A DNA stretch of 64,000 nucleotides from an uncultured Nitrososphaerota archaeon (GTDB taxonomy: Archaea; Thermoproteota; Nitrososphaeria; Conexivisphaerales; DTJL01), in the NCBI GenBank assembly GCA_963842885.1, contig CAWJIE010000007.1, forward strand, positions 1 through 64,000. Direction: 5' to 3'. A program made the position numbers and the translations under genes. The notes under the pieces were generated by a model, which was given only the letters and a program-made list of their open reading frames with translations, was not told where the DNA came from and made no database searches. Positions 3,733 to 27,837 of the stretch are shown here, in pieces. Position 1 is the stretch's first letter; every line of letters begins with the position of its first letter.

Positions 3733-3806
3733 GTGCTTCACGGTGTGGTTTAACCTTTGGGCGGAACCGGACCGGCTTGCCCATGCACGCCTTTTGCTCG
3801 CACTTC

Positions 3807-3846: not shown

Positions 3847-3978
3847 ACACATTGGAGTCGACTTGCGGATTCGCCACCAACGCCGTTCTTCCTCGGCTCC
3901 TGCAGCTCTTCAAGATCCTGCAGACTCGTTTGTCTCTCGCAAGGCTAAAAGCATCGAATCCCGCCATGGTGGGCGTGT

Positions 3979-10687: not shown

Positions 10688-10919
10688 GCATCACTCGCTT
10701 CCTGTAGGTCTATCAGGCGACCCGGCGAAGTAATAAGTATTGCCGGAGCAAATAGGCTGGTTCTTGTCTTAGATAATTCGTTAATTAACGTTTCCGTTAC
10801 GGATATATCAACATTAGATTCTGGATGGTAGATGCAAGACACCATGTGGTGTCAGTTTACTAGCATTAAAGTCTCGCTGTACCAAAACCAAATAAGGGCT
10901 GTACTGTCAAGGAGAACCT

Positions 10920-11427
10920 GTGTCTGACTGGTCTGGCATCAAGAACGTGTTGGACCCTACCACGTATACTTTTGTGATATATCCTCCGGTTGCCTTCGTG
11001 GTGATCTTTGCCCAGATGAGGACACCTCTGAATCTCGCTTGGATAGTCGTATCAGTAGGTTTGGCTGTTGCTGGGCAGGAGTATCTTCGCAAGGTGAAAT
11101 GGAAGATCATGGTTAGTATGCCTCCGGAGAAACGGAAGAAGCTGAACATGCGTTCAGTTATGAGATATGCGATGGGGAACTACAGGAAGCAAGTGCCGAT
11201 AGTCTTAGTATATGTCGCGCAGTTCGTTCTTTCTATGATTGCTTTGTATACAACGGCAAGTATTGTTTTCACTTTGCCTCCTAACGATGTGTATTTGGCA
11301 CCAGAACTCGTCATGTTCAGTCTGGGGGTTGGCCATCATTGCGCTTTCCCTGTATGTCGGGGCGACGTACCGAAAGGAAGCCAAATCGGAGGGCAAGAAG
11401 TTTACCCGTCAAGTTTTCCATAGGTAG
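10920..11427 (+). CDS. hypothetical membrane protein; frameshift near 11325
   Basis: Several hydrophobic segments; lower GC than the core region. Confidence 0.55.
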
Positions 11428-11510
11428 GTTGTCTGCTGGACCTGCGAAATGGCGCGGGCCGTTCTAAGCGGAAAATCATAATAGGAGAGCTGACGCAATC
11501 CTCCATCATA

Positions 11511-12038
11511 TTGGTCAAGTGCGTCAGTTGCGGGGAGGATATCGGTTGGAATGAGAAGAAGATAGACATGGGTGGTTACGGCTACTATTGCATCGATTGC
11601 TTCAAGTGCTACAAGTGCGGGAAGGAGCTGACGAAGGAAACAGCGAACGTGCTGATTCCGGACAAGAGTCTCGTGTGCGCGGATTGTTTGGCAAAGCTGA
11701 GGAGTGGAGAGAAGGACTTTTCCGGAGTCCCGGTCCGCGATGCGGACAGGCTGATGTGCAACTACTGTGGGAAGGAAATCAAGCCCAGCGATGAATTCTG
11801 TCCTTCATGTGGCGCGCGGAATCTCAATACTCCCGTGGCGTACTCTCCTCCTCCTGCAATGGACCTCCGAGGTTCTGAAGATGAGCGCCCGATGAGGTCC
11901 GACGCTAAGGGGATCGGGAAGCAAGTTTCTATTCCCTCAAAGTGGAAGTACTGTCCCGAATGCGGGTGCGAGCTTCCCTATAAGACCGCGAAGTTCTGTC
12001 CTGAGTGCGGGTTTGAGCTTTCATCCAAGCCTACGTGA
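11511..12038 (+). CDS. multi-zinc-ribbon protein
   Basis: Eight CxxC pairs including FCPSCG, YCPECG and FCPECG. Confidence 0.75.
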   Translation: MVKCVSCGEDIGWNEKKIDMGGYGYYCIDCFKCYKCGKELTKETANVLIPDKSLVCADCLAKLRSGEKDFSGVPVRDADRLMCNYCGKEIKPSDEFCPSCGARNLNTPVAYSPPPAMDLRGSEDERPMRSDAKGIGKQVSIPSKWKYCPECGCELPYKTAKFCPECGFELSSKPT

Positions 12039-12120
12039 TACTCCGCTTCAGGTTCAACTGCAAGTGGTTTGCCTATCCAGATGCAAACGCGTTTAAGCCC
12101 GAACGGAGACATTCGACGAT

Positions 12121-13374
12121 ATGGCCTCCATGGCGGTCTCGATTGGGGTCTTCGCTCTGGTGGTGATGTTGTTTGTGGCGGGTCTTGCGTTCTGGCAGTA
12201 TTACACCGTATCGAGTGATAACTCAGAGCTACGGAAGACATTGAACGCCACACAAGTAGACGATGCGCAGCTTCGAGCTCAAGTCAATTCCTTGCAGCAA
12301 CAGGTCACCTCACTGCAGGCAAAAATCAGTGAGTTGGAGGCGGCGGGAGGTAGCGAGAAGCTGAACATCTCATCGGCCTTTGCTGGTATTTCGGGGGGAA
12401 CCTGGGAAGTTCAATTGCAAGGCCTTGATAATGGCTCTGCAGCGGCGTCAATCAATCAACTATTGGTCAACGGAGGTCCCGTTGCCGGGGGCTGGAGGGG
12501 ATGCGTTGGCGATGGCTGTGGGCTTTATTCGAATGTGACCTCGCTCTCGGTGCCTGTTGGTTATTCGTTTACAATCCGATTCAGCTTAAGCACGTCCACC
12601 TACTCATCAGGACAGACGGTTGACATTAGGGTCATTACGGCGCAGAGTTCCTATAGGGTGCTGCTTGTCCTTCCTGGTGGCTCTGTGTATAGCGAGAGCA
12701 TGTCTGTGTACGTGGCAAACGCAACTGCGATTACGTCACCGGCTACCAGCTGGGCCTTGATGATAGCGGGGCGCAACACGGCTCCTTCAAACATATCGCT
12801 TAACAAGATTCAGATCAACGGCGTGACTCTTCCAAGTGCGGTCAACGTGTCGGTGAATGGCAATACAACCGGGTCCTTTGTCAACGCTTCAGTGCCGGCA
12901 GGCGATACGTTCACGTTAGCCTTGAACTTGACAGCGGCGGGATTTGGCAATCTGACGTTCACGACAGGACAGACGATCGAAGTGACGTTGGTCACTGCCC
13001 AAGGTTCCTATCCACTGCAGGTACTGCTTCCTGCGTCGACACAGTATGAGGACCTCCAGGTAAACACAGGATATGCCGTGTCATCCGGCAGCGGAAACTG
13101 GGCGGTTGTCATAGGCGGATACAATGCAGGAACTAATGCGGCTACGGTGCAGCAAGTACAGGTGAACGGGCAAATGGTCGGGAGCTTGGGTGGTGCGATG
13201 ATGATGAGCTCATTGGTCAACGGGGAGATGGTTTCTTATCCGGGCACCGTCATACCTGCCGGGGCTACGTTCAACTACGTCATGACGGTATTTGGCGTGT
13301 CTGCCGGACAGACCATTCAAGTTGAGATCGTTACTTTGCAAAGTTCGTATCCTGTGCAAGTACCTACTTCCTGA
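12121..13374 (+). CDS. membrane-anchored surface protein: coiled coil plus three repeated beta-rich domains
   Basis: N-terminal TM, heptad stretch, three repeats ending GQT(V/I)x(I/V)xxxTxQxSY; many N-x-S/T sequons. Confidence 0.75.
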   Translation: MASMAVSIGVFALVVMLFVAGLAFWQYYTVSSDNSELRKTLNATQVDDAQLRAQVNSLQQQVTSLQAKISELEAAGGSEKLNISSAFAGISGGTWEVQLQGLDNGSAAASINQLLVNGGPVAGGWRGCVGDGCGLYSNVTSLSVPVGYSFTIRFSLSTSTYSSGQTVDIRVITAQSSYRVLLVLPGGSVYSESMSVYVANATAITSPATSWALMIAGRNTAPSNISLNKIQINGVTLPSAVNVSVNGNTTGSFVNASVPAGDTFTLALNLTAAGFGNLTFTTGQTIEVTLVTAQGSYPLQVLLPASTQYEDLQVNTGYAVSSGSGNWAVVIGGYNAGTNAATVQQVQVNGQMVGSLGGAMMMSSLVNGEMVSYPGTVIPAGATFNYVMTVFGVSAGQTIQVEIVTLQSSYPVQVPTS

Positions 13375-13412
13375 TTCGTATGAGCCGGGATAGGGACATG
13401 GGTTCTAGGTCC

Positions 13413-13445
13413 GAGTTTTCTGTAGCTGCTGGAATGGATTGTGAT
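13413..13445 (-). repeat. dispersed intergenic repeat, copy 2 (reverse orientation)
   Basis: Reverse complement reads atcacaatccatTCCAGCAGCtACAGAaaactc. Confidence 0.65.
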
Positions 13446-13749
13446 GCTATCAGGGGTCTTTAGGGAGCTTGTGCGAGAGTTCCAGTTTTGGTTATGTCTC
13501 TCCCATTTCTAAGCAAAGAAGCTCCCCATTGCCATGTTTTCCTTTGCAGGAGCGCATAGAGCGCTTTCCCTTCATGGAACCCCCGCTCTGCATTTGTGGA
13601 CTCGACGAGTCAGCAGCCGAACCCATGTAAGGTCCTGTCGCAGTTGTTTCCCGGTGCTTTGAAACCGTTCCAGAAGCGAACCGACACATTACAGAAAGTG
13701 TAGAAACGCAGCAGCTTTGCTAGCGCATCCGGTCGAGAGATGATGCGGC

Positions 13750-14244
13750 CTACTCCGTCCTCCCCCACTGCTCACGCCAGTATCTCCTCCTCGACCTCCA
13801 GAACAGCATTCGGGCCACAAACAGCGCGAGCATGATGACCAATAGAATGATAAGGAATTCTCCCGGAAAGAACCCACCCTTGAGAGCGAAGAAATAGAAC
13901 AGCACGACGGCGACAATGATACCGATCGGCAGCATGAGCAGAATCCCCAAAGCGCGCGTCCAGGTCGACTGACCCCCTCTACCCGAACCACCGCCTCCGT
14001 GCCCTCCTTTGGCACGTTGCTCCCGAATCTGTTTAAGCCGTTCTTCATCCAGATAATACCTGCCGTTCACCTCGACAATAATGCCTGACTGACCAAGTCT
14101 TCGGTGCATAGCCTCCTCAAAACGCGGCGGCAGGCCCAGCTCCTGGATGGTCATGGCCTTTTCCGGGCTGTCGGCCCCTCTTTGACGGAACCTCTCAATC
14201 AACTCTTGCAGCCGTCGGCGCCCTTCCCCTCGATCTCTGGACAT
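13750..14244 (-). CDS. hypothetical membrane protein (possible winged-helix N-terminus, 2 TM)
   Basis: Charged helical N-terminus, Gly linker, two hydrophobic helices, basic tail. Confidence 0.7.
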   Translation of the reverse strand: MSRDRGEGRRRLQELIERFRQRGADSPEKAMTIQELGLPPRFEEAMHRRLGQSGIIVEVNGRYYLDEERLKQIREQRAKGGHGGGGSGRGGQSTWTRALGILLMLPIGIIVAVVLFYFFALKGGFFPGEFLIILLVIMLALFVARMLFWRSRRRYWREQWGRTE

Positions 14245-14267
14245 CCGGCTTCCTCTCAGTGTCTTGT

Positions 14268-14501
14268 TTAAGGTCCTTCTTCTGGGGCTTCAAGTCCCTG
14301 CATGATCTTTTCCGCGAGTTCCCTCATGGCGTCGGCCTTGACCATGGTTATGCCGCGGCGGTTTCTGCCAGCCATGACAAAGAGGAGGTCGCCCGGTTTG
14401 ATGTCGAGTTCCTTTCGGGCCTCAGCAGGGATGACCACCTGTCCTCTGTCGCCTACCCTTGCGGATCCGTAGAGGCGTGTATCTCTTCTTCTTTCAGCCA
14501 T
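14268..14501 (-). CDS. AbrB/MazE/SpoVT family DNA-binding protein
   Basis: ARVGDRGQVVIPAEARKELDIKPGD signature. Confidence 0.9.
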   Translation of the reverse strand: MAERRRDTRLYGSARVGDRGQVVIPAEARKELDIKPGDLLFVMAGRNRRGITMVKADAMRELAEKIMQGLEAPEEGP

Positions 14502-14789
14502 GCTTACACACTTTTCCTACATTTCCAACTAATATGAAAGTGCACTTAAGAACCTTTCGCCCTTCGCAACGCATGCGGACCGAGCAGCACAGGTGTATAG
14601 CGCAGGTCACACATGAGATTTCTGGGACAATCTACAACTTGAATGTTTTAATAAGGAGAGGAGTCGACTCCCTGATATGAAAATTCTGAAGACCGGTGCC
14701 ATGGCACAGTCTTTCGGCGATGGGCAGGGTGATCGGATGGTTTCTGTGTTGCAGGGAATGGCCCAAGAAATAGCGGGAGGTACGGTTTA

Positions 14790-15938
14790 ATGCCCAATTC
14801 TTCAGGAGCGAGCGACCGTCTGATCAAGGTTTCTACTGTCGCAGTATCGCTTGTCTTGATTCTGGTTCTGCTGACGGCCAGGGTGGCATTGGCAGACAGC
14901 GTCATCAGCACATTGACGTTGGGCGGCAACCCCGATGGGATGGCGTTCGACTCTACTAACGGGAACATCTACGTGGCGAACTATGGTTCAAACAATGTTT
15001 CGGTCATATCGGGATCGAGCAACACTGTGATCGCTAACGTGACGGTGGGCACCGAACCCGACAGGGTCGCCTTCGACCCTGTCAACGGGGAACTCTACGT
15101 GGACTGCTACGGTTCAAACAACGTCTACGTCATAGCTGGGTCCAACAACAGCGTGGTCGCCACGATAGCGGTGGGCAACGAACCCGAAGGAAATGCATTC
15201 GACTCCGCAAATGGCTACCTCTACGTGGCGAACCACAGTGACAACAACGTCTCCGTCATAGATGGGTCGACCAATACGGTTGTCACGACAGTGGCAGTGG
15301 GCAGAGACCCGCACGGAGTCGCATTCGACTCATCCAATGGGTACATCTACGTTACAAACGACGGAGATGGCACGGTCTCCGTCATCTCCGGGTCCAACAC
15401 TGTAATTGCGACGATTGAGGTGGGCATTCTGCTCAGTCTCCCGGAGGGGATAGCTCTCGACTCGGCCAACGGGGATCTCTATGTGACCATCGGCGCCAAT
15501 AACACGGTCTCGGTTATTGCTGGGAATAACAATACCGTGCTAGGCAGGGTGGCGGTGGGCTATTACCCCCAGGTGGCCGTGTTCGACTCAGCCAACGGGA
15601 ACATCTACGTAGCCAACCTCGGAAACGCGACCTCTGCGTCTTTCGGCGAAAATGGCACGGTCTCCGTAATAGCTGGGTCGAACAACACCGTGGTGGCGAC
15701 TCTCCCGGCGGGCTACGGGCCCGCAGGAATCTCATATGACTCGACCAACGGGGACGTCTACGTGTCGAACTACGGCGATGGGACCGTCACCATAATCGCG
15801 ACTTCGGGGACACCGGTTCCAGAGTTTCCGGGGGTTGGAGTGTGGGCTGTTGTGATCGCTTCCGTGGCTGCTGCAATGTTACTTAGCAGGAGGTTTCAGG
15901 CTTCCAGCGTGAAGGCCCTAAAACCCTCGATTGATTAA
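14790..15938 (+). CDS. YVTN/YncE beta-propeller surface protein with PEF-CTERM sorting signal
   Basis: Seven P-x-G-x-AFD...YVxN...VSVI repeats; signal peptide; C-terminal VPEFP + TM + RR. Confidence 0.9.
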   Translation: MPNSSGASDRLIKVSTVAVSLVLILVLLTARVALADSVISTLTLGGNPDGMAFDSTNGNIYVANYGSNNVSVISGSSNTVIANVTVGTEPDRVAFDPVNGELYVDCYGSNNVYVIAGSNNSVVATIAVGNEPEGNAFDSANGYLYVANHSDNNVSVIDGSTNTVVTTVAVGRDPHGVAFDSSNGYIYVTNDGDGTVSVISGSNTVIATIEVGILLSLPEGIALDSANGDLYVTIGANNTVSVIAGNNNTVLGRVAVGYYPQVAVFDSANGNIYVANLGNATSASFGENGTVSVIAGSNNTVVATLPAGYGPAGISYDSTNGDVYVSNYGDGTVTIIATSGTPVPEFPGVGVWAVVIASVAAAMLLSRRFQASSVKALKPSID

Positions 15939-16212
15939 CGAAAGCTTCCTGAGCCCTTCTCCAGCTCACACGATTTGAGATCATGAATAGAGGAGGAGGT
16001 GTTCTCCTCATCACTGCGTTGTCTGCGCCCACGCCGCCGACTTCGACTGGGAGCTAGTCTGCTTGGAATGTGGGGTGTATGTCCTCCTCTACTCGTCGTG
16101 CAGGTCCCTCGAAAAGAGGAAGAAGGGACTCCCAGTTGTTAGAAAGGAGGAGAGCGAAAGGAAGTTCGGATTAGGACTCATCGACCTGAGACGTAAGAAG
16201 GGATGATCAGTC

Positions 16213-16284
16213 TTGAGGATATTGATTTCTTTTCCAGCGGCAACAGATAACCAAGAATAGAATGGGCTGCTGGAAATGATATCA
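16213..16284 (+). repeat. dispersed intergenic repeat, copy 3, followed by an inverted partial copy
   Basis: attgatttctttTCCAGCgGCAACAGAtaaccaaga; 16223-16241 is complementary to 16266-16284 at 16 of 19 positions. Confidence 0.8.
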
Positions 16285-16850
16285 CATCGAGAAGTTATGG
16301 TTGTTTTCTTTAGTAACGCCCTATGTCTTTGGGACATGAAACGATGGGCATTCATTTCAAGAAACACGATGCGGAAAGAGAACGTTGAAAGCAGGCTCCC
16401 CTTCACATCTCAATTTGAACCTTGATTGCAGCATCGGAGCCTTAATTACGGAAGTTGGACTCATGATTGGGTGGGAAGGTCGATTTGTATCAGATTTGCA
16501 GAACGGTGTCACTGTCGGTAGGTACGGGAGGGCGGAACAAGATGTACAAGGTCGACCTGTTTCTCAATCTTGCTTAAATTGACCGTTTCGATCGTTTCGA
16601 CGTCCTTGACCCGGCTATTTCCAAGTCGATTGAGGAGCTAAAGGGCGCCTTGAGCCGTCAGGACTCTAATCAGTTGTTTCACGAGAATCCTACGGTGGAA
16701 GCTGGGCATATCGCCAGGTTCGTTTGCCACTTTCTCTCCGACTCCTTGGGGCGGTTCTGGCCCGAGGTCGGGTCTATCGCCAGAGCAAGAGTGTGGGAGA
16801 GCGCCACTTCCTATGTCGAATATCGAGTCTACGATTGAGGTGGTCTTGCT

Positions 16851-16990
16851 CTGGCTGAGGAAGATCTGAAAGACGAAGTGAAGGACTACGTCGCAAGACA
16901 GCTGGGGTGTCCGCTTGTTGTTGACGAGTCTGACCTTGGTGAAGGGAATAGAATTGACCTCGTTGGTTTCAAGTGGGATGACTCAGGGTT
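16851..16990 (+). pseudogene. possible truncated N-terminus of a PD-(D/E)xK nuclease-like protein
   Basis: AEEDLKDEVKDYVARQLGCPLVVDE...RIDLVG, then runs into the 3' end of the GNAT gene. Confidence 0.3.
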
Positions 16991-16992
16991 CT

Positions 16993-17568
16993 TTACCAGT
17001 AACCCCGTCCGATATGAAAGGTTCTGCCGCTATTCATCACCAAATCATAGATCTCCTTGGAACAGACGGGACTGAACATTTCGTCGGAATCATACCTCGT
17101 TTTTCCATGTACGTCCTCAAACGAGATTCTTCTACTCATTAACCTGAAACCGAGCCGATGGTAGAGTCCGCCGTCAGGATGCTCCTTCAAGTTAGCGCTG
17201 AGGCAAGCAATATGGCATCCCCTTCGCCTCAGAATCGCCAATCCTCTCTTCACCATATCTCCCCCCACTCCTTGGTGCCTTTCGGAAGCGGTAACGCACA
17301 CTCCACCTATCCCACCAAGTAGTATTCTTCTATTCTCAAACAGAGCCTCTCTCTCGAACAACTCGGTCTGTCCTATGATTGTCGCATCGCGGGACGCAAG
17401 TATTCTACCAAAACTCTCCGCTATGAAACATTCCTCGATCTCCATTCTACTGACATGGCTAAAGCACTCCCTCTGAAGCTCCACTACCCGCAGGTTCTGA
17501 GCCGAGGTAAGCTCTTTGGTTGGAACGAATACTATCCTAGCCAATACGCTGCCTAAAGTAGCATGCAA
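16993..17568 (-). CDS. GNAT family N-acetyltransferase
   Basis: GIGGVCVTASERHQGVG (motif A) and LYHRLGF. Confidence 0.85.
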   Translation of the reverse strand: MHATLGSVLARIVFVPTKELTSAQNLRVVELQRECFSHVSRMEIEECFIAESFGRILASRDATIIGQTELFEREALFENRRILLGGIGGVCVTASERHQGVGGDMVKRGLAILRRRGCHIACLSANLKEHPDGGLYHRLGFRLMSRRISFEDVHGKTRYDSDEMFSPVCSKEIYDLVMNSGRTFHIGRGYW

Positions 17569-17752
17569 AGGCGGACATATAGTTCTGACGATGGGAAATC
17601 CTCGAGTCTAGCCCGGATATCTGTAGGACTTCCTGCCGGCGGGTGATGGAGGCACCAGCGAGGCTGGGGCGCAATCAGAATAGACACGCGGGTCATCGAA
17701 GAATAGACCCGTCAATCAAATATGCGTCTCGTCACCCCTCTCCCGAGGGCAA

Positions 17753-17938
17753 TTGTCTCAAGAAATCCCGGGCCGAATGTATCGCTGCATACTGGACGGC
17801 CTCTACTTCAGGGACAAGGAAAAGGCTCTGCTGCACCTGCAGATAGAACACAACTTCGTAAACGTGGACGAGTCCCTCCTCCGGGAGGTCACGTTCGGGC
17901 CTGAAATGATGCCACGGCCGCGGCCTCATTTCCAGTAG
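17753..17938 (+). CDS. small C2H2-like zinc-finger protein
   Basis: YRCILDG...F...LLHLQIEH. Confidence 0.5.
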   Translation: MSQEIPGRMYRCILDGLYFRDKEKALLHLQIEHNFVNVDESLLREVTFGPEMMPRPRPHFQ

Positions 17939-18076
17939 TCGCAACGGCCATCGCAAAAGCGGCGCGCGTCTGCAATCTCCCTTTCCTCTCACGTTCTCGC
18001 CCTTTAATCATCTGCATGGGCCTCCAGTCAGGGCCAGGGTCTCGCCCACGAACCCCAAGGCCGCCCCGATGAAGAG

Positions 18077-18139
18077 GCCGCCATCGTCGTTCAGGTCGAT
18101 GATACTGATTCCTTCTCCAGCAGCAACAGATACCCAAGA
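18077..18139 (+). repeat. dispersed intergenic repeat, copy 4
   Basis: gccgccatcgtcgttcaggtcgatgatactgattccttcTCCAGCAGCAACAGAtacccaaga; aligns ungapped over ~60 bp with copy 7. Confidence 0.85.
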
Positions 18140-18233
18140 TTGCCATCACAAGGTCTCCTGGATAACGCCCCTTAGACCAATGGCAAATCGTCGAAATGCA
18201 GATATAAATCCGAGCCTTCTCTCACTAGTATCA

Positions 18234-18914
18234 ATGGTGAAGTATTGCATCAGTTGTGGGAAGCAGAACGAAGACCAAGCAGTCTTCTGCATAGGGTGCG
18301 GACGAAGGTTCCCGGATGAGTCAACTCCTGTTCAACAGGCGGGGAATACTGCCCCTGCTTCGCCCCCGCAGCCCACTTCACTCTTCACCATAGAGAAGGG
18401 GCCCGGAGCCCACGAGCATAGCTTCACTGATGCCTATCTCAAGGACCCCGAGGGCAAAGTGCTGTTAGTGGCGAGGAGGGAATCGCTCCTCCACGAGAAC
18501 TACGCCATAGTGGACGGAGTCGAGGTCGTCAAAGGTCTCATCGAGCATAAGGCACATCTCACCCACTCGGAACTGCGTCTTGAGGATGCTGACCACAACG
18601 TTCAGGGGTCCATCCAAGTCAGCTCCATCCGGACAGCGGGGGTTCCCCCCAATTGCTGGATAGAAGATGCCAACGGCAACAGGCAGGGTTCAGTGATGTT
18701 CACCAGCGGGCTGCTCGGCTTCTCTGTGGTCAAGCTTGATGGCTCCAGGATCTTCGACGCTTCATTCACCTCCGGACCTGGGCTGAGGCAACTCCTGACC
18801 GCGTTGGAGCACAGGGTCTATGAGATCGATCTCGTTGACTCCAGCTTTCCCTTGCCTATGCTTCTGACCGTCGTTCTAGCCATCGAGGGCGTGACTCTGA
18901 CCACTCGGAGGTAG
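18234..18914 (+). CDS. zinc-ribbon protein with possible LURP/scramblase-like beta-barrel domain
   Basis: YCISCG...FCIGCG, then beta-rich domain ending in LLTVVLAIE helix; TATA-like GATATAAAT at 18201-18209. Confidence 0.7.
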   Translation: MVKYCISCGKQNEDQAVFCIGCGRRFPDESTPVQQAGNTAPASPPQPTSLFTIEKGPGAHEHSFTDAYLKDPEGKVLLVARRESLLHENYAIVDGVEVVKGLIEHKAHLTHSELRLEDADHNVQGSIQVSSIRTAGVPPNCWIEDANGNRQGSVMFTSGLLGFSVVKLDGSRIFDASFTSGPGLRQLLTALEHRVYEIDLVDSSFPLPMLLTVVLAIEGVTLTTRR

Positions 18915-18977
18915 AGGCTTCGATACCCATCGAGTCAAGTCCAAAACCCATGATTGGCTGACAAGCTCGGTTTTTTT

Positions 18978-19003
18978 GAGGGAATCGCAAATCCTTTCCA
19001 GCA
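18978..19003 (+). repeat. dispersed repeat copy 5, left half (interrupted by IS110)
   Basis: gagggaatcgcaaatccttTCCAGCA ends exactly at the IS boundary. Confidence 0.8.
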
Positions 19004-19064
19004 CTCATGAAAGATGCCCCTTGGGCCAGCTTCCTCGAGCCTGCCTTCAGCCAGCGGTGTCCTG

Positions 19065-20108
19065 TCAGCCATCCATGGATTTGAGCTTTGTCTTGTACCT
19101 CTCCCTGTTCGTGGACTCGTACTCCTCCCTTCTCGTGAGCATGAACCAGACGATCTTCAGCATCTTGTTGGCCACGGCGACGACGGCCTTCTGGTCGCCC
19201 CTCCTCCCCTTCACCCGCTCGTAGAAGGACCTCAGCCTCGGGTCGTGCATCGATGCAGACCTCGCCGCCTCCACCATTATCCATCGGAGCATCTTCGAGC
19301 CCTGCTTCGTGATGGCTCCGTGATACTCCACGGAGCCCGATTGGTGGAGCGATGGGGCCAGCCCGGCCCACGACACCAGCTTCTTGTAGTTGGGGAACCT
19401 CTTGATGTCCCCTATCTCGGACCTTATGAGGAGGGCAGAGAAGACGTCCACCCCCGTGAGGCTCAGGAGCAGCCTCACGTCCTCGTCCTGTGACGCCCTC
19501 TCCGTGATCCTGTCGTCCACCCTGGAGATCTGTTCATTGAGGCTCTCCAGGTGATCCAGGTGGTTGTCCAGCATGAGCCGCTCCATCGGGGGGAGCTCCA
19601 GCGTCTTCAGCCACTCCACCCCTCCCTTCCCGAAGAGGTCGGAGAAGTCATGCTTCAGGCCGTTCCTGTCGACCATCGCGTGGACCCTGTTCTTCACCAT
19701 GGTGCGCACCCTCACGATCGACGCCCTGTGCCTGATGAGCTCCCTCATCTCCCTGACATCCTTGGGAGGGACGTAGCTCTCGGGTATCAGGTCCGCCCTG
19801 AGGAGGTGGGCCAGTATCCTGGCGTCCACCCTGTCGCTCTTTATCCTCGCCCATGCGATTGCCTTGGTCTTCGAAGGGGAGGCCAACACGGTCGCGACGT
19901 GCATGGAATCGAGCCTCTCGTATATGCTTAGCCAGTATGCCCCCGTCGCCTCCATCACCACCCTGTCGTCCATGGTGAGCGTCGCAGCGAGGGAGGATAT
20001 CCCTTCGCAGTCGTTTTCGAAGCCGAACTCGTCCACCACGGCCCCGTGCTCGTCCATCATTGAGACCCTGCATTTCGCCTTGCCCACGTCTATTCCCACG
20101 TATCTCAT
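19065..20108 (-). CDS. IS110 family DEDD transposase/recombinase
   Basis: MRYVGIDVGK, VMEATG, KSDRVDA and AGLAPSLHQSG (catalytic Ser loop); AGGAGA upstream. Confidence 0.95.
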   Translation of the reverse strand: MRYVGIDVGKAKCRVSMMDEHGAVVDEFGFENDCEGISSLAATLTMDDRVVMEATGAYWLSIYERLDSMHVATVLASPSKTKAIAWARIKSDRVDARILAHLLRADLIPESYVPPKDVREMRELIRHRASIVRVRTMVKNRVHAMVDRNGLKHDFSDLFGKGGVEWLKTLELPPMERLMLDNHLDHLESLNEQISRVDDRITERASQDEDVRLLLSLTGVDVFSALLIRSEIGDIKRFPNYKKLVSWAGLAPSLHQSGSVEYHGAITKQGSKMLRWIMVEAARSASMHDPRLRSFYERVKGRRGDQKAVVAVANKMLKIVWFMLTRREEYESTNRERYKTKLKSMDG

Positions 20109-20129
20109 TCCACTATTCACTCTCCTTTT

Positions 20130-20255
20130 TGCAGCTGGCATCGGGCTGCATTCACTCATGCGGGCGCCAGGCCCACTTCCTTAGCAGCTCAGGATTCGCC
20201 CAGTCAGCAACACGGTCGCCAGGACCATGCTGAAAATCGGGCTTGCCAGCCCATA
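20130..20255 (-). ncRNA. putative bridge (seek) RNA of the IS110 element
   Basis: Closing helix GCUGGCA/UGCCAGC; two stem-internal-loop-hairpin arms, both capped by CUGGC; loop strands match the target repeat and the donor junction. Confidence 0.75.
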
Positions 20256-20283
20256 CGGTATCAGGGGGCGTCTTTCATAAGGT

Positions 20284-20301
20284 CAGCAATAGATATCCAA
20301 A
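20284..20301 (+). repeat. dispersed repeat copy 5, right half
   Basis: CAGCAAtAGAtatccaaa begins at the IS boundary. Confidence 0.8.
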
Positions 20302-20390
20302 TGACTCGTACTGTGGCTCTCATTCGCAGGTCCAAGCCTACCGCAACGTTTGACACAGGATGCTTGGATTCTCTCTTGAGGTCGGTAGAG

Positions 20391-21194
20391 CTAGCCCAGG
20401 AGCGGGGACATGGACTGCAGCAGCGCGTCCTCGAACTGAATGTGGTTGTTGAAGTGGTTGTTGGGGTCCTGGATCAGCACGTACTCCCAGTAGAATTCGA
20501 AGAGGCCGAAGGTCACTATCGACAGTATGAGGTAGAGTACAAAGCTCCTGCTGGGGATCCCGTTGTACCTGTTGAAGGTGAAGTTTGTGCCGAGCGCGGA
20601 AAGCGCCCGAGAAGCGTCCGCCAGCATCCCGTCCTCCCTCCTTTCATGCCTGAAGAAGTCGCCCGTCAGGAAGTAGAGGATATAGAGGCCGGCGATCACG
20701 TCGACGAACGGCACTATCAATAGGATCACCCAGAGCACAGCGCTCTTCTCGGTCTCTTCGATCTGGGCCTGACGCGATGTCGCCTCCATCGAGCCGAGGT
20801 ATGCCTCGACGTTCGCCCCCTTCCTCGAAGCCGCTTCCCTCAGGGCCACCTGCAGGTCTGCGAAGAACCTCTGCTGCCTCGCGAAGTGCTGGTTGCGCCT
20901 CCTGATGAGGAGGTAGATCACGTAGAGGAAGGCCACGGCCAGGGCTAGGATTAAGACAGTGAACACCAACACCGTGGTGCCGGCAAAGAGGCCTGCGACG
21001 GGGGGGCTGTAGGTATTGCCGGACTGCAGGGCCGTCAACACCGGGAAGGCGACGAAGAGCACGAGGACCACTTCGGTCAGCGCTAGGAGTTCGACAGCGA
21101 TGGGAACAAGCATCCACAGAGGGGAGACCCTCGTGTCGGTCATCACCCTCATCTCAGCGTCCTTTCTGAGATTCTGCACAGTGGCGGACAACAT
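20391..21194 (-). CDS. membrane protein, DUF4234-like
   Basis: Repeated TM + (H/N)xHF units; LSIVTFGLFEFYW...DPNNHF. Confidence 0.7.
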   Translation of the reverse strand: MLSATVQNLRKDAEMRVMTDTRVSPLWMLVPIAVELLALTEVVLVLFVAFPVLTALQSGNTYSPPVAGLFAGTTVLVFTVLILALAVAFLYVIYLLIRRRNQHFARQQRFFADLQVALREAASRKGANVEAYLGSMEATSRQAQIEETEKSAVLWVILLIVPFVDVIAGLYILYFLTGDFFRHERREDGMLADASRALSALGTNFTFNRYNGIPSRSFVLYLILSIVTFGLFEFYWEYVLIQDPNNHFNNHIQFEDALLQSMSPLLG

Positions 21195-21286
21195 ATATTC
21201 TACAGCCGTATGAAAGTAATAAAGGTTCGCAAGGGGGACCGTTCAGGCAGGGACCAGCTTCCCCGTAAACCGCGCGCAGTTCTTTT

Positions 21287-21329
21287 GGTCGATGTTATTG
21301 ATTTCTTCTCCAGCAGCAACAGAACCCCA
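21287..21329 (+). repeat. dispersed intergenic repeat, copy 6
   Basis: ggtcgatgttattgatttcttcTCCAGCAGCAACAGAacccca. Confidence 0.85.
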
Positions 21330-21371
21330 GTTAGGCGACGGGCACAATAAAGGAGAATCCGAAGCTGGATG

Positions 21372-21582
21372 CTAATCCTTTGCGATGATGACTTCCGTGG
21401 ACTTGATGATGACCGAGACCTTGTCGCCCTTCATCAGGCCCAGGTCCTGCGCGGCCTCCTTCGTTATCATCGAGGTTATTGTGAAGGGGTCCTTCACGTC
21501 AACCTTCACTACGGCGGCCACCGCCCCCAGCTGGACTGCGGAGACGGTTCCCACGACTTTGTTCCTTGCGCTTATGCTTCAT
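21372..21582 (-). CDS. Mop/TOBE molybdate-tungstate binding protein; 1-nt insertion after codon 2
   Basis: Corrected start MKISARNKVVGTV; ITSMIT...LGL.KGD.V...IKSTEV. Confidence 0.85.
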
Positions 21583-21688
21583 GTCGCATCGACCTCATTC
21601 TTTCGCGATATAAGGAACTCCCCAATCCATAGTAAACGCAGGGGATTCCCAAGGGAATTTAACCCCGTCTCCATGAGGCTCGGTCGAC

Positions 21689-22313
21689 ATGGCTGGCTCG
21701 GATGGATTCGACGCCCTCGTTCAGGAAGCGGCGAAGCTCAGGGGGCATCTCTGCCTCGGCCTCCCCTTGGGGGTAAAGATGGGACTCGAAGGCCTTCGCC
21801 TGCTGAAAATGGAGAAGCCGGAGGAGAGGAACCGCCTGATGGTCGTCGTGGAGAACAACAAGTGCCCCGCCGACGGGATTCAGGTGGCGACGGGCTGCAG
21901 CGCCGGGAGCAGGAGGCTGAAGGTCCTCGATTACGGGAAGTCGGCGGCCGTCTTCTTCGACGGCGCCACAGGGATGGGGTTCAGGGTGAGGACGAAGAAG
22001 GATTTCTCCAGCCGTGCGATGGATTTGGCGATCAAGGACGGGCTCCTCAAGGAGGGTGAGGAGGTCAAGCAGTTCTCGCCCCTAGATAGGAAGATAACCA
22101 TGAACGCCTTCATGAAGATGACGCCTGCGGAGCTCTTCGACGTCCAGAAGGTCAAGATGGTGGGCGAGGCCCCCTTCCTCCCCAGCCTGACCGAGCCGAG
22201 CGCCCTGCTGCTCCAATGCGGCGAGGAGATAATGGACGGGAAGGGAGTAGTGGAGAAGGGCGGGATGCTCTGCGGCTCTTGCGCGCACGAGCCCATACTA
22301 TGTCTCCGCGTAG
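21689..22313 (+). CDS. FmdE family protein with C-terminal zinc finger (frameshifts near 3' end)
   Basis: GHLCLGLPLG, ENNKCPADGIQVATGCSAG and DYGK motifs. Confidence 0.8.
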
Positions 22314-22437
22314 CAGCCTTTCTCGGCACTCCGTCCTGTCCGTCGAGCCTGGCGTGACCCTTCATGTCGTCACAGCTGCCAGCCCGATAGGGTAAACACT
22401 ATAGATTATCAAGAGCTATAGACTCGTCCCCCGGAGG

Positions 22438-23577
22438 ATGACCCATGCCGTTTTCAAAGGTCACCGCAGTCGCGGTGGTTGTGTTGATAGTCTTCGCCGG
22501 GATCGGCGGGTATTTCGTAGGCTCCTGCGAGGGGCCAAGAGCACCGTCGACTTCCCCACGACCCGCGTCATCACCGACATGGACATGACCGGTCGCAATG
22601 TCACCATTCCCACGACCATCAATCGGGTGCTGACGACCGGCCCGGTGGAGATGGAGCTCGTCTACATGCTCGCCCCAGCCAAGCTGGCCGGATTGAGCTT
22701 CACCTACAACGGCGCTCCGACTGCGGGGGAGGCGTTCCCGCCGCTGGTGCCCGACAACATGTCCGGCTTGCCGATGGTCGGAGGCTGGTTCGGCACCCAG
22801 ACGGGCAACTTTGAGACCTTCATAGGCGAAAGGCCGGACATAATACTGGACGCCCAAGAAGACAACGTGATAAGCATCGCTACTTTGCAGCAGGACTTCG
22901 CCAGCATACCGGTGGTCGAGCTCAATTCGACCTGGGCCGACAACGTAACCACCTATGCGGCGGCCATCACCTTCGTGGGCAACCTCTTGGGCGTGCAACA
23001 GCAGGCCCAGAGTCCTCGTGAGCTACTATCAATACACGCGATGAACTACGTGAACAATATCACCTCCCAAATCCCGGTCAGCGCCAGGGTGAAGGTGTAT
23101 TACGCCGAGGGCAGCAACGGGCTCAGCACCGACCCCTTGGGCTCGATGCACACACAGCTCCTGGCCTTCTGCGGAGGCATCAACGTGGCGAATGTCACCC
23201 TCCTGCCCGGCTACGGGATGGCCAGCGTCAATCCCGAGCAGATCCTCCCGTGGAACCCCTCCATGATAATCATCGGTCGGGGGAGCCAGGCCAGCCTCTA
23301 CCAAACGGTCATGTCCAACACCACCTGGAGCAGCATCAGCGCGGTGGTGAATCGAGCAAGGTCTACGTGAGACCGGACAACCCCTTCTCCTGGTTTGACG
23401 GCCCGCCGGGCCCGATGCAGATCGTCGGGATGTACTGGATGGTGCACACTCCTCTACCCGGCCCAGACCTCCGGGCTGAACCTCAGCGGCCAGGTGAAGA
23501 CGTTCTACTCCGAGTTCATGCACTACACTCTCAACAGCACCCAGGTCGCGTCGCTGCTGGCTGGTGGGCCGAGCTAG
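22438..23577 (+). CDS. ABC transporter substrate-binding protein, iron-siderophore/cobalamin type (frameshifted)
   Basis: TDMTGRNVTIP..INRV, GGWFG, KVYYAEG and PFSWFDGPPG motifs. Confidence 0.8.
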
Positions 23578-23626
23578 AGCGCGCAGGCCTACATCGCGCG
23601 CCTGGCTGGGGCGACGTCCGGAGGGA

Positions 23627-24820
23627 GTGGAAACGTTCAAGGGTCGCGTCCGTGCGGGCGTCGCCGCCTGCGGGCAGGCGACCCGAGAGTTCCACTAGCG
23701 CCCGCCCTTGGGACTCGTCCCACCGGCAGGCCGGCAGTGGAGGCGCTAGCGACGGCCGCCGGGAAGCCCGAGCTGGAGACCGGCAGACAGAGCCCGGCCG
23801 CTCCCGAGAAGGTCAGGAGGGACCTCCATCGGCTTCATGCTGCTCGTCCTGACCGTCGTCTGTCGCCATCGTCTCCCTGGCGATAGGAAGGTACCCGGTT
23901 CCGCTCGTGGACGTCGTGAGAATACTTGTGTCCAGGGTGGTCTCGATTCCGCAGGACGTGGCCCGCGATTGAGGACACGGTGGTCATGCAGATAAGGCTC
24001 CCCAGGATCCTGGCGGCCCTGCTCGTCGGCGGCAGCCTCTCGATAGCCGGTGCCTCCTTCCAGGGGCTGTTCCGCAACCCTCTCGTCTCACCTGACATCT
24101 TGGGGGTGTCTGCGGGCGCGAGCGTCGGCGCCGCCCTTGCCATACTCCTCTACGAGAGCCAACGTAATGATTCAGGTGTGGGCATTCTGCTTCGCTCTGG
24201 TGGCCGTGGGGTTGACATATTTCATGAGCAAGCAGGTCAAGGGCAACCCAACCCTCAGCTTGATCTTGGCGGGCATAGCCATCGAGTCGCTCTTCATGGC
24301 GTTCCTCTCGCTGGTCAAGTACGTGGCGAACCCCCACAACCAGCTCCCCGCCATCACCTACTGGTTGATGGGGAGCCTGAACGCCGTCACCATGGGCGAG
24401 CTGACGGTGGCTGCGGTCCCCATGCTGGGAGGGATAGTCGTCCTGTTGCTCATCCGCTGGAGGATCAACGTGGTGGCCATGGGCGAGGAGGAGGCGATGG
24501 CCCTGGGAGTGGACACCAACAAGCTTCGCGCCGTGATCATCGTCTGCTGCACCGTGGTGACCGCTGCGGCGGTGTGCATCAGCGGCACGATAGGCTGGGT
24601 GGGCCTCGTCATCCCTCACATCGGCAGGATGCTGGTCGGGCCGAACCACAAGGTGCTGCTCCCGGTATCGGTGTTGCTGGGCGCGTCCTACCTGCTGATC
24701 ATCGACGACATCGTCCGCACCGCGGCGAGCATCGAAATCCCGATAGGGATCCTCACCGCGATCATCGGCGCCCCGTTCTTCCTGTACCTCCTGAGCAGGG
24801 GACGGTGGGGGTGGGCCTAG
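23627..24820 (+). CDS. FecCD/BtuC family ABC permease (frameshifted, start uncertain)
   Basis: RLPRILAA...FQGLFRNPLVSPDILGVSAGA, EEAMALGV and IGWVGLVIPH motifs. Confidence 0.85.
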
Positions 24821-25662
24821 TGCTGAGGGTGGAGGATGCGGAGTTCTACTACGACGACGCCCACGAAAAGGGCTTCAAGGACGTAAGCTTCTCCCTGAAT
24901 CGGGGCGAAGTGATGTGCATCCTCGGGCCCAACGGCTGCGGCAAGACGACGCTTCTCAAATGCCTGATCGGGCTGCTCAAGCTGAGCAAAGGTCATGTGT
25001 GGTTGGACGGTCAAGAGATCGACAAGCTGGGGCGGCGCGAAGTCGCAAAGGTGGTCGGCTACGTCCCCCAGCTCCATCAGCCGGCATTCCCCTTTTCCGT
25101 GCTCGACGCCGTCCTCATAGGCAGGGCGCCTCACCTGAACTTCCTGGAGTCGCCGGGGAGGAAGGACGAAGAGATCGCCGAAATGGCCATCGATGCGATG
25201 GGCATCACGGGGCTGAGGGACAGGCCCTACACCCAGCTGAGCGGAGGCGAAATGCAGCTGGTGATCTTCGCCCGCGTCCTCGCGCAGCAGCCCAAGCTGC
25301 TTCTGCTGGACGAGCCCACTTCTCATCTGGACTTCGGCAACCAGGTCCGCGTCCTTCACACCGTCGCAGAGCTGGCCTCCACTGGCCTGCCCGTCATCAT
25401 GACTTCACATTTCCCCGACCACGCCTTCCTCTCGTCCAGCAAGGTGGCGATCATGAAGGACAACAAGTTCTTGGCGGTGGGTTCGCCCGATGAAGTGATC
25501 ACCGAAGAGAGCATGGAGAGGATATACGGAATCAAGGTCAAGATCCTCGACGTGGAGGCCCCCGTCGCTCGCAGGATTTGCGTGCCCCTTGCGGGCGACG
25601 GCGAGAGCTCTCAGGAGAAGGTCGCGCTTTTGGAGAGGTTGACAAATGCAAGAGGAAACTGA
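24820..25662 (+). CDS. ABC transporter ATP-binding protein (FepC/BtuD-like)
   Basis: GPNGCGKTT, LSGGE and LLLDEPTSHLD motifs. Confidence 0.9.
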   Translation: MLRVEDAEFYYDDAHEKGFKDVSFSLNRGEVMCILGPNGCGKTTLLKCLIGLLKLSKGHVWLDGQEIDKLGRREVAKVVGYVPQLHQPAFPFSVLDAVLIGRAPHLNFLESPGRKDEEIAEMAIDAMGITGLRDRPYTQLSGGEMQLVIFARVLAQQPKLLLLDEPTSHLDFGNQVRVLHTVAELASTGLPVIMTSHFPDHAFLSSSKVAIMKDNKFLAVGSPDEVITEESMERIYGIKVKILDVEAPVARRICVPLAGDGESSQEKVALLERLTNARGN

Positions 25663-26230
25663 GAAGTTCCTGGCGAAGGCCAAAGAGCTCCATGGCGACA
25701 TCTGCCCTGGGCTGGTCCTGGGCACCAGGCTCGCCTTGGCTGGCATGAGAGCTCTGAGCCTGGACCCCGCCAAGCGCAACCGCGATCTCATCGTCTTCGT
25801 GGAGGTCGACCGATGCATGACGGACGCGGTGCAGGCCGTGACCGGCCGCTCCCTGGGGCATCGGAACTTGAAGTATGTCGACTACGGCAAGTTCGCCGCC
25901 GTGCTCTACGACAGTTCGTCGCACAGGGCGGTGCGCGTCAGCCCTCGCCGGGAGCGCGAAGAAGGCGTCGGGGACATCATCGAGCATTGGAAGACAGCCC
26001 CGGAAGAGGAGCTGGTCAGGATTGAGGAGGTGGAGGTAAGCGTGGAAGCCGACGACCTGCCGGGGAAGCCCCGCTCCAGGGTTCCATGCGGCAAGTGCGG
26101 CGAGATCATCTTCGACAACAGGGTCGTCTCCGTGGGCGGGAAACCCCTGTGCCGGGCCTGTGCCGAGGGAGCCTATTATCGCCCAGTGACCAAGGTGAAG
26201 GGCGAAACAGGCGGAAGGGGAGCGTTATGA
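25646..26230 (+). CDS. FmdE family protein
   Basis: HGDICPGLVLG, DRCMTDAVQAVTG and CGKCGE...CRAC motifs. Confidence 0.85.
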   Translation: MQEETEKFLAKAKELHGDICPGLVLGTRLALAGMRALSLDPAKRNRDLIVFVEVDRCMTDAVQAVTGRSLGHRNLKYVDYGKFAAVLYDSSSHRAVRVSPRREREEGVGDIIEHWKTAPEEELVRIEEVEVSVEADDLPGKPRSRVPCGKCGEIIFDNRVVSVGGKPLCRACAEGAYYRPVTKVKGETGGRGAL

Positions 26231-26973
26231 TGAAACTGATAGACGACCTCATTGCTTCTGTGCGAGGGCACGAAGCACCTGTCAAGGACGTTCGCGTCGG
26301 GGTCTCATGGACGGGCGTCTGGGGGGAATCCTGCGGCCTGTCCAAGACCTACGGCATCCCGGTGGTCCACGGGAACTACACTCGTGACATGGGTCACCTG
26401 ACCGAGAAGACCACGCTGGAGCTGGCCGAGTACTCCAGGTCCTGGAATCTCGTCGAGGCCAGCATTGGCGTCGCGGCGATCAACTCCATGATCGACTGCG
26501 AAAACGCGACCGATGCCAACGCCCAGGAGCTCATCCTGAAGGAGGGGAAGGGCAGGAAGGTGGCAGTCGTCGGCGCCTTTCCATTCAACCCCCAGCTCAG
26601 GAAGCTGGCGAAGGAGATGTGGACGTTCGAGCTCGATCCGGCGCTCCTCAACCCGGCCGAGGGGGCCATAATCGACACCGCGGCCGAGTCCATCATCCCC
26701 GAGTGCGAGATGGTCATCATCACCGGTTCAGCGCTCATCAACAAGTCCTTGGAAAGGCTGCTGGAGCTCTCCCGTTCGGCCAAGGCGTACACCGTGGTCC
26801 TGGGCCCGAGCACCTGCATGAACAGGGTCCTGCTCGACTACGGAGCGGACCTCTTGGGAGGCGTTCAGGTGGTCAAGCCTGAAATGGTGCTCAGGAAGCT
26901 GAGCCAGAGCGGCGGCATGCTGGACTCGAAGGTCTGCCCGGGCGAAATCATCCCCAAGGTCCTGGCAAAATGA
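26227..26973 (+). CDS. DUF364 family (Rossmann-like) protein
   Basis: EASIGVAAINS, VAVVGAFP and ITGSALINKSLERLL...GPST motifs. Confidence 0.8.
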   Translation: MMKLIDDLIASVRGHEAPVKDVRVGVSWTGVWGESCGLSKTYGIPVVHGNYTRDMGHLTEKTTLELAEYSRSWNLVEASIGVAAINSMIDCENATDANAQELILKEGKGRKVAVVGAFPFNPQLRKLAKEMWTFELDPALLNPAEGAIIDTAAESIIPECEMVIITGSALINKSLERLLELSRSAKAYTVVLGPSTCMNRVLLDYGADLLGGVQVVKPEMVLRKLSQSGGMLDSKVCPGEIIPKVLAK

Positions 26974-27609
26974 GCGCGATTACGGACCCCCAGGAATACG
27001 ACAAGGTCGCCAAGCTCGCCTTCGCCCCCATCTACCCGTACCTCGCCCAGCGAATAAAGGAGAAGTTCGGCATCACCGAGGGCATATGCGTTGACGTGGG
27101 CTCGGGACCGGCCTCTCTGGCGATTGCCATGGCACAGCATCACCGACCTGCGAGTGTTCTCACTGGATATCCAAGCTAAGATGGCAGAAGTCGCCCTCAG
27201 GAACATCGCCAAGGCTGGCCTTTCGTCGCGCATCAAGACCGTCACCGCCGACGTATGCAGGATGCCGTTCGAGGACAGGCTCGCAGACCTTGTCGTCAGC
27301 CGCGGGTCCCTTCCGTTCTGGGAAGACCGTAGAGCCGCCTTCCGCGAAATCTATCGAATTCTGAAGGCAGGGGGAACTGCCTATGTGGGAGGCGGTTTTG
27401 GCAGCGAAAAGATAAGGTCCCAGGTCATGAGGGCATTCTCCACGCAGGAGGCCCTGAAGGCCTGCAGAGACAAATTCCTGGAGGGCATGAAGCGGCTCAA
27501 ATTGTCACCCGAGGAGCTTCAGGCGGACCTGGCGGATGCCTCAGTTCCTGGGACCATTGAGAGGGAGAACTGCGGGCTCTGGGTGCAAATAGTCAAGCCC
27601 GGAAGGTAG
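26970..27609 (+). CDS. class I SAM-dependent methyltransferase (frameshift near 27135)
   Basis: VDVGSGP, DLVVSRGS and EIYRILKAGG motifs. Confidence 0.85.
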
Positions 27610-27627
27610 CCCCGCAGACTTGCGACA

Positions 27628-27689
27628 GCCGTCATCATCGGTGAGGTTGAAGGCATTGGTTCCTTTTCCAGCAGCAACAGGTATCCAAA
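27628..27689 (+). repeat. dispersed intergenic repeat, copy 7
   Basis: gccgtcatcatcggtgaggttgaaggcattggttcctttTCCAGCAGCAACAGgtatccaaa. Confidence 0.85.
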
Positions 27690-27837
27690 AACACAGTGGG
27701 ACCAGTGCAGGCGGCAGTTTCACCATCCGATTCCGAAGGTTAATGAGAACATCGATCCTATCTGCTCCTAGTCAGACAACCCGAGTAGCTGCAAAGCATC
27801 GAGGGTAGTAGGCGTAACTGACCGTGCCAGCCATCCA

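Follow-up and report, generated by a model that had tools for sequence, protein, structure and literature searches.

The 64,000-nucleotide stretch of DNA from a soil archaeon analyzed here (contig CAWJIE010000007.1, hereafter the window) is contig C7 of G000, a 2.03-Mb genome of 11 contigs with a G+C content of 58%, and contains an array of accessory genes separated by copies of a direct repeat, which we call M1. We found that M1 belongs to a family of short, non-coding, mosaic intergenic repeats (modules) that is genus-specific and occupies flexible parts of the genome between gene-sized units. The modules are locked in orientation over long distances, M1 is the specific insertion target of an IS110-family insertion sequence (IS), and in one strain comparison the order of units switched inside modules. 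With moderate confidence, we interpret the modules as portable recombination sites, probably driven by homology, that delimit and reshuffle cassette-like units.

Mosaic intergenic modules in the genome

A profile scan of the genome, which had been proposed in a preliminary description of the window, located 50 M1 places on six of the 11 contigs. Alignment and BLAST analysis of longer flanks revealed mosaic elements of 90-230 bp that include M1, and in these elements we distinguished at least five short modules: M1, M2 (core GGCTTGGACCTGCGAA), the AT-rich M3, MB, and M4. The conserved length of the modules is 40-210 nt, their order is variable, and truncated copies occur. M1 has a strongly conserved 24-nt core and is present as two sub-types set apart by a 1-nt indel. 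Mapping of the five modules in G000 yielded 183 module matches in 108 intergenic loci, which were clustered in 37 of the 112 20-kb bins with a median spacing of 1.8 kb; the gap between same-facing neighboring loci was shorter than 3 kb in 62 of 88 cases, and within arrays the module repeats were spaced every 0.25-4 kb. A de novo survey of intergenic repeats revealed 89 regions with a depth of at least 5, and 75 of them carried M1, M2, M3, MB, or M4. According to crude gene calls, M1 was intergenic at 51 of 53 places, in agreement with the earlier proposal that a same-facing repeat divides gene-sized units. We also observed a second small repeat family, consisting of CCGGGATAGG followed by a short palindrome, in about seven copies (G000 C2 50665, 128240, and 135320; C10 7989 and 15411; window position approximately 13440).

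M1 copies in the window

With two mismatches allowed, the M1 core, TCCAGCAGCAACAGA, had six matches in the window, compared with a mean of 0.18 matches in 100 shuffles, none of which reached six. The modules and the features around them are as follows.

3825+, 13419-, 16233+, 18116+, 21309+, and 27667+: matches to the 15-nt M1 core
3802..3860, + strand: M1, divergent sub-type; exact core at 3825-3839; nhmmer E value of 4.9e-4
13395..13460 (approximate extent), - strand: M1, reversed, divergent sub-type; core at 13419-13433 with one mismatch
16205..16274, + strand: M1, from the profile search; immediately 3' of a small zinc-ribbon gene (approximately 15990-16200, +)
18075..18155, + strand: M1, from the profile search; GNAT unit on one side and zinc-ribbon gene on the other
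18970..19001, + strand: left half of an M1 split by the IS, from contigs of public sequencing runs (run contigs)
20284..20310, + strand: right half of the same M1, from run contigs
20323..20338, + facing, as the M1 copies: M2 module; core GGCTTGGACCTGCGAA on the - strand; 53 nt past the stop of the DUF4234 gene
21242..21353, + strand: M1 (core 21309-21323); DUF4234 membrane gene (20391-21194, -) on one side and TOBE/Mop-like gene (21372-21554, -) on the other
27614..27712, + strand: M1; approximately 100 bp inside the right edge of the island and 5 nt past a methyltransferase gene
19002..20283, - strand: IS110/IS1111-family element of 1282 bp with subterminal inverted repeats, from run contigs and domains
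19065-20159, - strand: transposase of this IS, with DEDD_Tnp_IS110 and Transposase_20 domains
10738..27812, no strand: 17-kb accessory island that holds the array; edges set by eye from junction sequences

The preliminary description had listed five same-facing intergenic copies, one of them split by the IS, and the core count, the profile search, and the run contigs confirmed them. The four uninterrupted same-facing copies could again be aligned without gaps over approximately 45 bp. The further copies reported near 3807 and 13413 (reversed) are real, with cores at 3825+ and 13419-, and both were found to be of the divergent sub-type. The core pattern, the profile search, and the module mapping all placed no M1 copy in the window between 28 and 64 kb, as had been stated. 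The earlier account of the array was thus correct but incomplete, as the repeat is genome-wide and is one module of a larger family, and the M2 at 20323-20338 had been overlooked. In addition, the M1 at 21242..21353 begins 19 nt beyond the stop of the TOBE-like gene.

Orientation of the modules

Neighboring module loci in G000 had the same facing in 88 of 100 pairs, with 12 switches, and neighboring M1 copies considered alone had the same facing in 40 of 47 pairs. This orientation lock was also evident outside G000: all 32 pairs on 33 metagenome contigs had the same facing, and in three other congeners all modules agreed in facing within each of 11 loci. Several of the metagenome rows (L059/L084, L077, L079, L081, L083, and L088) look like chance matches in unrelated DNA with a GC content of 0.36-0.65; they were retained in the orientation count, to which they contributed no pairs, and were excluded from the strain comparison described below, as were loci under 2.4 kb. 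Module facing was independent of gene strand. In particular, a hand count based on the crude gene calls showed that the gene at the CCAA-end side of M1 shared the facing of M1 in 29 of 53 cases, and the gene at the other side did so in 23 of 53.

Replication polarity was considered as the cause of the lock and rejected. The GC skew had no pattern that followed the 12 switches, and the lock was not explained by the position of the Orc1/Cdc6 genes, one of which (C3 234 kb) lies inside a same-facing domain and the second (C4 345 kb) near a switch. At the sole orientation switch on C2 (C2 103894-104626), the M1/M2 loci point apart around one small gene, as if a single unit had been inverted.

Changes of unit order at modules

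The metagenome contig L076 (3.8 kb) is 97-98% identical to G000 C2 104.6-107 kb and contains the same units in the order A-C-B instead of A-B-C. The switch between A and C was located within a shared 37-nt stretch of M3, where the alignment follows one genomic copy and then the other, and the switch between C and B within a shared stretch of M2 of approximately 26 nt. When breakpoints between strains were inspected, as the preliminary description had suggested, order switches were therefore found inside the sister modules M3 and M2, but none was shown inside M1 itself.

We compared 44 M1 copies with 212 kb of G002 and found eight in which homology extends across M1 and covers 100 nt or more of flank. 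On the opposite side, homology stops at M1 in every one of these eight (five cases on one side, three cases on the second side, and no two-sided case). Units bounded by modules also recur at approximately 90% identity in different surroundings; one of them, 540 bp long, is bounded by M1 and M2. Furthermore, a conserved block of 2.5 kb, orthologous in four species (G000 C3 191430-194013, L098, L099, and L100), has an M4/MB module at its edge, beyond which every genome differs. This edge resembles the fixed point of entry into a variable region. In a contig of run X1, window positions 10820-13453 are replaced by 911 other letters, and the right breakpoint of this replacement adjoins the reversed M1.

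Other run-contig joints between M1 copies (16255-20309, 16262-27665, 17926-21332, 20341-21287, and others) had sides of only 21-30 letters and were taken as repeat artefacts. No orthologous intergenic space was found in which both flanks were kept and a bare module was present in one genome only; the sole filled and empty pair was a 2-kb array at a tRNA gene, which is described below.

M1 is the target of an IS110-family element

Three copies of the IS are present in G000, and all three share a single insertion point within M1 and a single orientation (TCCAG-CA / GCAAYAGA). The contigs of three of the four public runs contained the IS-free joint 19001 to 20284, with a shorter side of 111-255 letters and a two-letter ambiguity. 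Because the run contigs join these two positions, the IS measures 1282 bp (19002-20283), and an uninterrupted M1 exists in related populations. With three of three copies at one position and orientation and with the intact allele in three runs, M1 could be assigned as a target site of this IS. The preliminary description had noted that IS110/IS1111 elements often target other mobile-DNA sites, and M1 proved to be such a target, specific for all three copies. In the IS copy at C3 1403-2709, the transposase (C3 2080-2515) is broken into two pieces with one TAA inside.

The accessible parts of the published reports describe similar behavior. IS110-family elements are known to home to repeated host sequences (PMC11187229; ISPpu9, 10.1101/2025.01.17.633520; ISPpu10, 10.64898/2026.03.19.712850). 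ISPpu9 inserts in repetitive extragenic palindromic (REP) sequences (10.1101/2025.01.17.633520), the target of ISPpu10 is a conserved intergenic sequence (10.64898/2026.03.19.712850), and IS110/IS1111 target sites are read by bridge or seek RNAs (PMC11187229). Guide segments for M1 within our IS were looked for and could not be identified above chance; the 130-nt upstream non-coding end and the target shared only three 6-nt matches, with an estimated chance expectation of approximately three.

Of the five genomes, G000 and G002 yielded matches to the PF01548 transposase family, whereas G001, G003, and G004 yielded none; M1 is abundant in the same two genomes, G000 and G002. Persistence of the IS where its target is common would explain why IS110 is confined to M1-rich genomes. 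The Y1 transposase showed the same distribution as IS110 and abundant M1, being present in G000 and G002 only. In G000 it belongs to a lone IS605-type unit among housekeeping genes (C5 212194-213695), in which the Y1 transposase PF01797 (C5 213342-213695) lies beside a TnpB-like open reading frame (ORF) named from its translation. A 3-kb region around the Y1 transposase had no similarity elsewhere in G000, and the ends of the IS605-type unit were unrelated to the modules. The modules showed similarity neither to this unit nor to the IS110 ends, and an origin from either was rejected.

Distribution of the family

A BLAST search with a 231-nt element as the query matched all five genomes of the genus, with 27 matches in G000, 28 in G002, nine in G003, four in G001, and two in G004, and none of 26 genomes from ten other genera. 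A blastn search with an 86-nt M1 query found M1 in G000 and G002 only, and the longer 231-nt query added a single M1-region match each in G001 and G003. The three genomes G001, G003, and G004 carry mainly arrays of M2 and M3. Among named records, repeated pattern matches were found only in contigs of a metagenome-assembled genome (MAG) of a Conexivisphaerales archaeon. The plasmid and phage collections contained no match to the 231-nt element, and a lone viral contig that matched the pattern had a GC content of 0.37 and was taken as a chance match. We found no published account of these repeats in a search that did not extend to supplements; the paper on the family (PMC10640624) does not use the terms transposase, mobile, repeat, synteny, or integron.

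Coding potential and structure of the modules

M1 was considered as a coding sequence, with W-I-S-[VI]-A-A-G-K-E-I-N-I-I as the translation of one reverse frame, in which most variation is silent. This possibility was rejected on three grounds: the frames are short (5-156 amino acids after the repeat), lack in-frame starts, and are often stopped; the sub-types differ by a 1-nt indel; and a translated query of 72 amino acids returned only open frames of 28-127 amino acids, often with stops, in two of 31 genomes.

With respect to RNA, a search of the whole window against Rfam at the gathering score gave a single match, a tRNA at 54505, and none on M1, and a search of seven module-rich loci with E values up to 1 gave only chance-level matches away from the modules. 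The fold of the full 231-nt element was no more stable than those of shuffled sequences (z of -0.37), although the minimum free energy fold pairs both ends. Among DNA folds of eight M1 regions, seven had z above -1, and no hairpin or inverted binding arms were seen; the single low-z region (z of -2.17) pairs with an adjoining partial inverted copy. Inspection by eye revealed no inverted similarity between M1 and M4 ends and no T-runs at the modules. RYYYAAC and GTTRRRY boxes were found by inspection on neither strand of the M1 consensus, which bears out the earlier remark that the attC boxes are lacking.

The accessory island and its cargo

All same-facing copies of the array in the window fall within the island at 10738-27812. 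The island is missing at the matching site in G002 and G003, where 28-90 bp separate the DeoC-type aldolase gene (window 9899-10687) from the alcohol dehydrogenase gene (27838-28935). Across its core part (31-51 kb), the window is colinear with G002 and G003, and the closest relatives of the island pieces are located on different G002 contigs. The array cargo is encoded on both strands and includes transporters, GNAT and beta-propeller proteins, a Mop/FmdE/ABC module, and small membrane or zinc-ribbon proteins. The small zinc-ribbon gene (15990-16200, +) recurs together with M1 at at least seven places in G002 and once more in G000 (C2 131.2 kb).

The preliminary description had seen no integrase in the window and had proposed a search for a co-occurring recombinase. 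Matches to the tyrosine recombinase family PF00589 were located at C5 10-12 kb, C3 399 kb, and C4 324 kb (weak), all of them outside the window and the arrays examined. The search among array ORFs was negative, as 81 ORFs (33 + 26 + 22) in four arrays contained no recombinase except the IS transposase, which is of the IS110 type.

Elsewhere in the flexible genome, consecutive segments of 0.3-1.7 kb in G000 C3 58-97 kb and C2 14-34 kb map with 80-95% identity to scattered places, and the core is colinear. G003 contains a 2-kb array (L094 2507-4670) composed of M3, a beta-propeller gene, and three M2 together with two small membrane-protein genes. This array is flanked on one side by the intact tRNA gene, which bears an intron, and on the other by a 17-nt duplicate of a tRNA 3' end, and the corresponding site in G000 (C4 182549-182572) is empty; it is a classic integrase-type insertion, yet it has no integrase.

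The TOBE/Mop-like gene (21372-21554, -) encodes 60 amino acids, was named from its translation, and has multi-copy relatives in all four congeners. Its association with two FmdE genes, a DUF364 gene, and an ABC transporter suggests a molybdate or tungstate uptake module. Several ABC-transporter genes at 22400-25800 look frameshifted, and FecCD is split at 23926/24050. These frameshifts are probably assembly errors of the window and not pseudogenes, because the contigs of two to four public runs differ from it there by single-base indels (23014, 23030, 23037, 23352, 23358, 23448, 23956, 24157, and 25731/25736). The phosphofructokinase gene (7285-8308) is split likewise.

Modules as proposed recombination sites and alternative explanations

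If the modules serve as portable sites of this kind, two same-facing copies would recombine and thereby delete or circularize the unit between them, and a circle with one module could re-enter at any other module; units would thereby be inserted, lost, and reordered. For this scheme we infer both a circle intermediate and general homologous recombination instead of a dedicated enzyme. Homology-driven recombination is probable because crossovers were seen in two different, unrelated module types, and the scheme would explain the orientation lock because the entry of a circle leaves its module and the resident one as direct repeats only. The suggestion in the preliminary description that the repeat is a recombination site for the capture or shuffling of genes is thus partly supported; the one-sided M1 homology (eight of eight) and the crossovers within modules agree with it, but a dedicated, integron-like capture system is unproven, and no recombinase besides the IS transposase was found among the 81 array ORFs scanned.

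Several observations weigh against recombination at the modules or limit its role. The sole direct evidence for crossover is one short-read metagenome contig compared with a MAG, and repeats may have been mis-joined in either assembly, although the shared stretches at the L076 switches are short (26-37 nt). Crossover inside M1 itself was not seen directly, and the one-sided homology at M1 could partly reflect a general background of scrambling. Gene-by-gene scrambling of flexible regions is seen among all five congeners, including places where modules were detected in neither genome. When the G002 contig piece L014 was compared with G000 C3 58-97 kb, some inter-gene junctions were just 0-14 nt wide and had no repeat, and the homology of the GNAT gene with G002 stops 14-26 nt past the gene, where there is no module. 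Because scrambling also occurs at module-free places and the GNAT homology ends without a module, the modules are not necessary for reshuffling.

It is conceivable, though we consider it unlikely, that the modules are selfish, non-autonomous mobile repeats that multiply in tolerant intergenic DNA, in the manner of miniature inverted-repeat transposable elements (MITEs) or bacterial interspersed mosaic elements (BIMEs), and that recombination between them is accidental and has no role in gene capture. Their mosaic architecture with variable order and truncated copies, their lineage-specific copy numbers (27 and 28 versus 9, 4, and 2), and their confinement to intergenic DNA would fit this explanation, and so would their use as an IS110-family target, as REP sequences are used by ISPpu9 according to the available text of that report (10.1101/2025.01.17.633520). 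However, transposition leaves unexplained why orientation is locked over tens of kb independently of gene strand (88/100 pairs in G000 and 32/32 in the metagenome). The elements have neither terminal inverted repeats nor end pairing beyond that of shuffled sequences (231-nt fold, z of -0.37), and no clean filled versus empty site of a single element was found. A source element was likewise not found, as the single IS605-type copy has unrelated ends, and the plasmid and phage collections were without a match.

A bolder form of the recombination-site interpretation is an integron-like cassette economy without an integron, in which single genes would be excised as circles and re-inserted at modules by an unrecognized site-specific recombinase or by an RNA-guided IS110-type enzyme acting on M1, and in which much of the gene-by-gene scrambling would result from this exchange. 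We regard this form as doubtful. A fully dedicated site-specific cassette system, that is, an analogue of the integron in which such an unrecognized or IS110-type RNA-guided recombinase, the latter acting on M1, captures and excises cassettes at the modules, appears improbable. The array-like layout, with same-facing sites every 0.25-4 kb, would fit it; units with a module at each end are common to species in different contexts, the 24-nt M1 core is strongly conserved, and M1 is abundant only where the IS110 transposase occurs (G000 and G002). Nevertheless, the 33 + 26 + 22 array ORFs that were scanned included only the IS transposase, none of the tyrosine recombinase genes is located within an examined array, and neither hairpins nor inverted binding arms were seen. 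Moreover, the crossovers took place in M3 and M2, which are unrelated sequences, and congeners without IS110 still have same-facing M2/M3 arrays.

There is little to recommend the view that the modules are transcript-end or regulatory elements (3' untranslated region, terminator, or operator) that travel with genes. In the G003 array, M2 is located 10-20 nt past the stop codons of the two small membrane-protein genes, and in the window the M1 and M2 that follow the TOBE-like and DUF4234 genes are 19 nt and 53 nt past the respective stops. In contrast, the modules as a whole have no fixed strand or distance relation to genes (29/53 and 23/53), their conserved length is 40-210 nt, and they showed no T-runs by eye, no stable structure, and no Rfam match. 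Finally, it is highly improbable that the modules are relics of attachment sites or internal sequences of plasmids or viruses integrated in tandem, since, even though the 2-kb G003 array lies between the 17-nt tRNA 3'-end duplicate and the intact tRNA gene with an empty site in G000 and the window array lies within a 17-kb insertion, the modules are not tRNA-like and are located within islands instead of at their exact ends, the arrays have no integrase or viral genes, and no genuine match to a viral contig, phage, or plasmid was found (the single pattern match had a GC content of 0.37).

Comparison with known systems

Beyond viruses, plasmids, and a few reported integrons, it is little understood how the accessory genomes of archaea are built. 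The whole genus studied here has a colinear core beside regions that vary gene by gene, with same-facing repeats at the joints. If the modules are substrates for reshuffling, they would provide a simple and testable mechanism of cassette exchange, which would also explain the orientation lock.

The arrays share several features with integron cassette arrays, such as those with attC sites and the repeats of the Vibrio super-integron. In both, same-facing repeats divide mostly gene-sized units, the order of units varies between close relatives, and IS110/IS1111-family elements insert into the repeats. The attC sites are imperfect inverted repeats that form a hairpin when single-stranded, whereas the modules do not form an imperfect-palindrome hairpin and the M1 consensus has no R boxes. 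Further differences from integrons are that no integron integrase or attI was found beside the arrays examined here, that the cargo genes lie on both strands, that several unrelated module sequences occur in variable order, and that the arrays are dispersed, occupying at least 37 20-kb bins. As far as the accessible text of the sources goes, an IS1111 group that targets attC is cited in PMC11187229, and integrons have been reported in Archaea (10.1101/2022.02.06.479319).

The modules resemble REP sequences and BIMEs in being short intergenic motifs that are arranged in mosaics at approximately 100 loci per genome and serve as targets of IS110-family insertion. Unlike these, the modules are not palindromic, their orientation is locked over tens of kb, and their host is an archaeon; a REP-associated tyrosine transposase was not found, and the lone Y1 transposase belongs to the IS605-type unit. 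MITEs are similar to the modules in being short, non-coding, multi-copy, lineage-specific, and intergenic, but no terminal inverted repeats, target duplications, or related autonomous element were seen for the modules, and their orientation is locked.

The closest correspondence for the IS itself is with the IS110/IS1111 targets of bridge or seek RNAs, for which the available portion of PMC11187229 describes the same features: a fixed insertion point and orientation, a 2-nt core common to the IS and its target, and subterminal inverted repeats. This model covers the behavior of the IS at M1, and not the nature of M1 and its sister modules. The IS and M1 add an example from archaea in which an IS110-family element homes to a repeat of its host, and they provide a natural target pair for work on RNA-guided recombinases.

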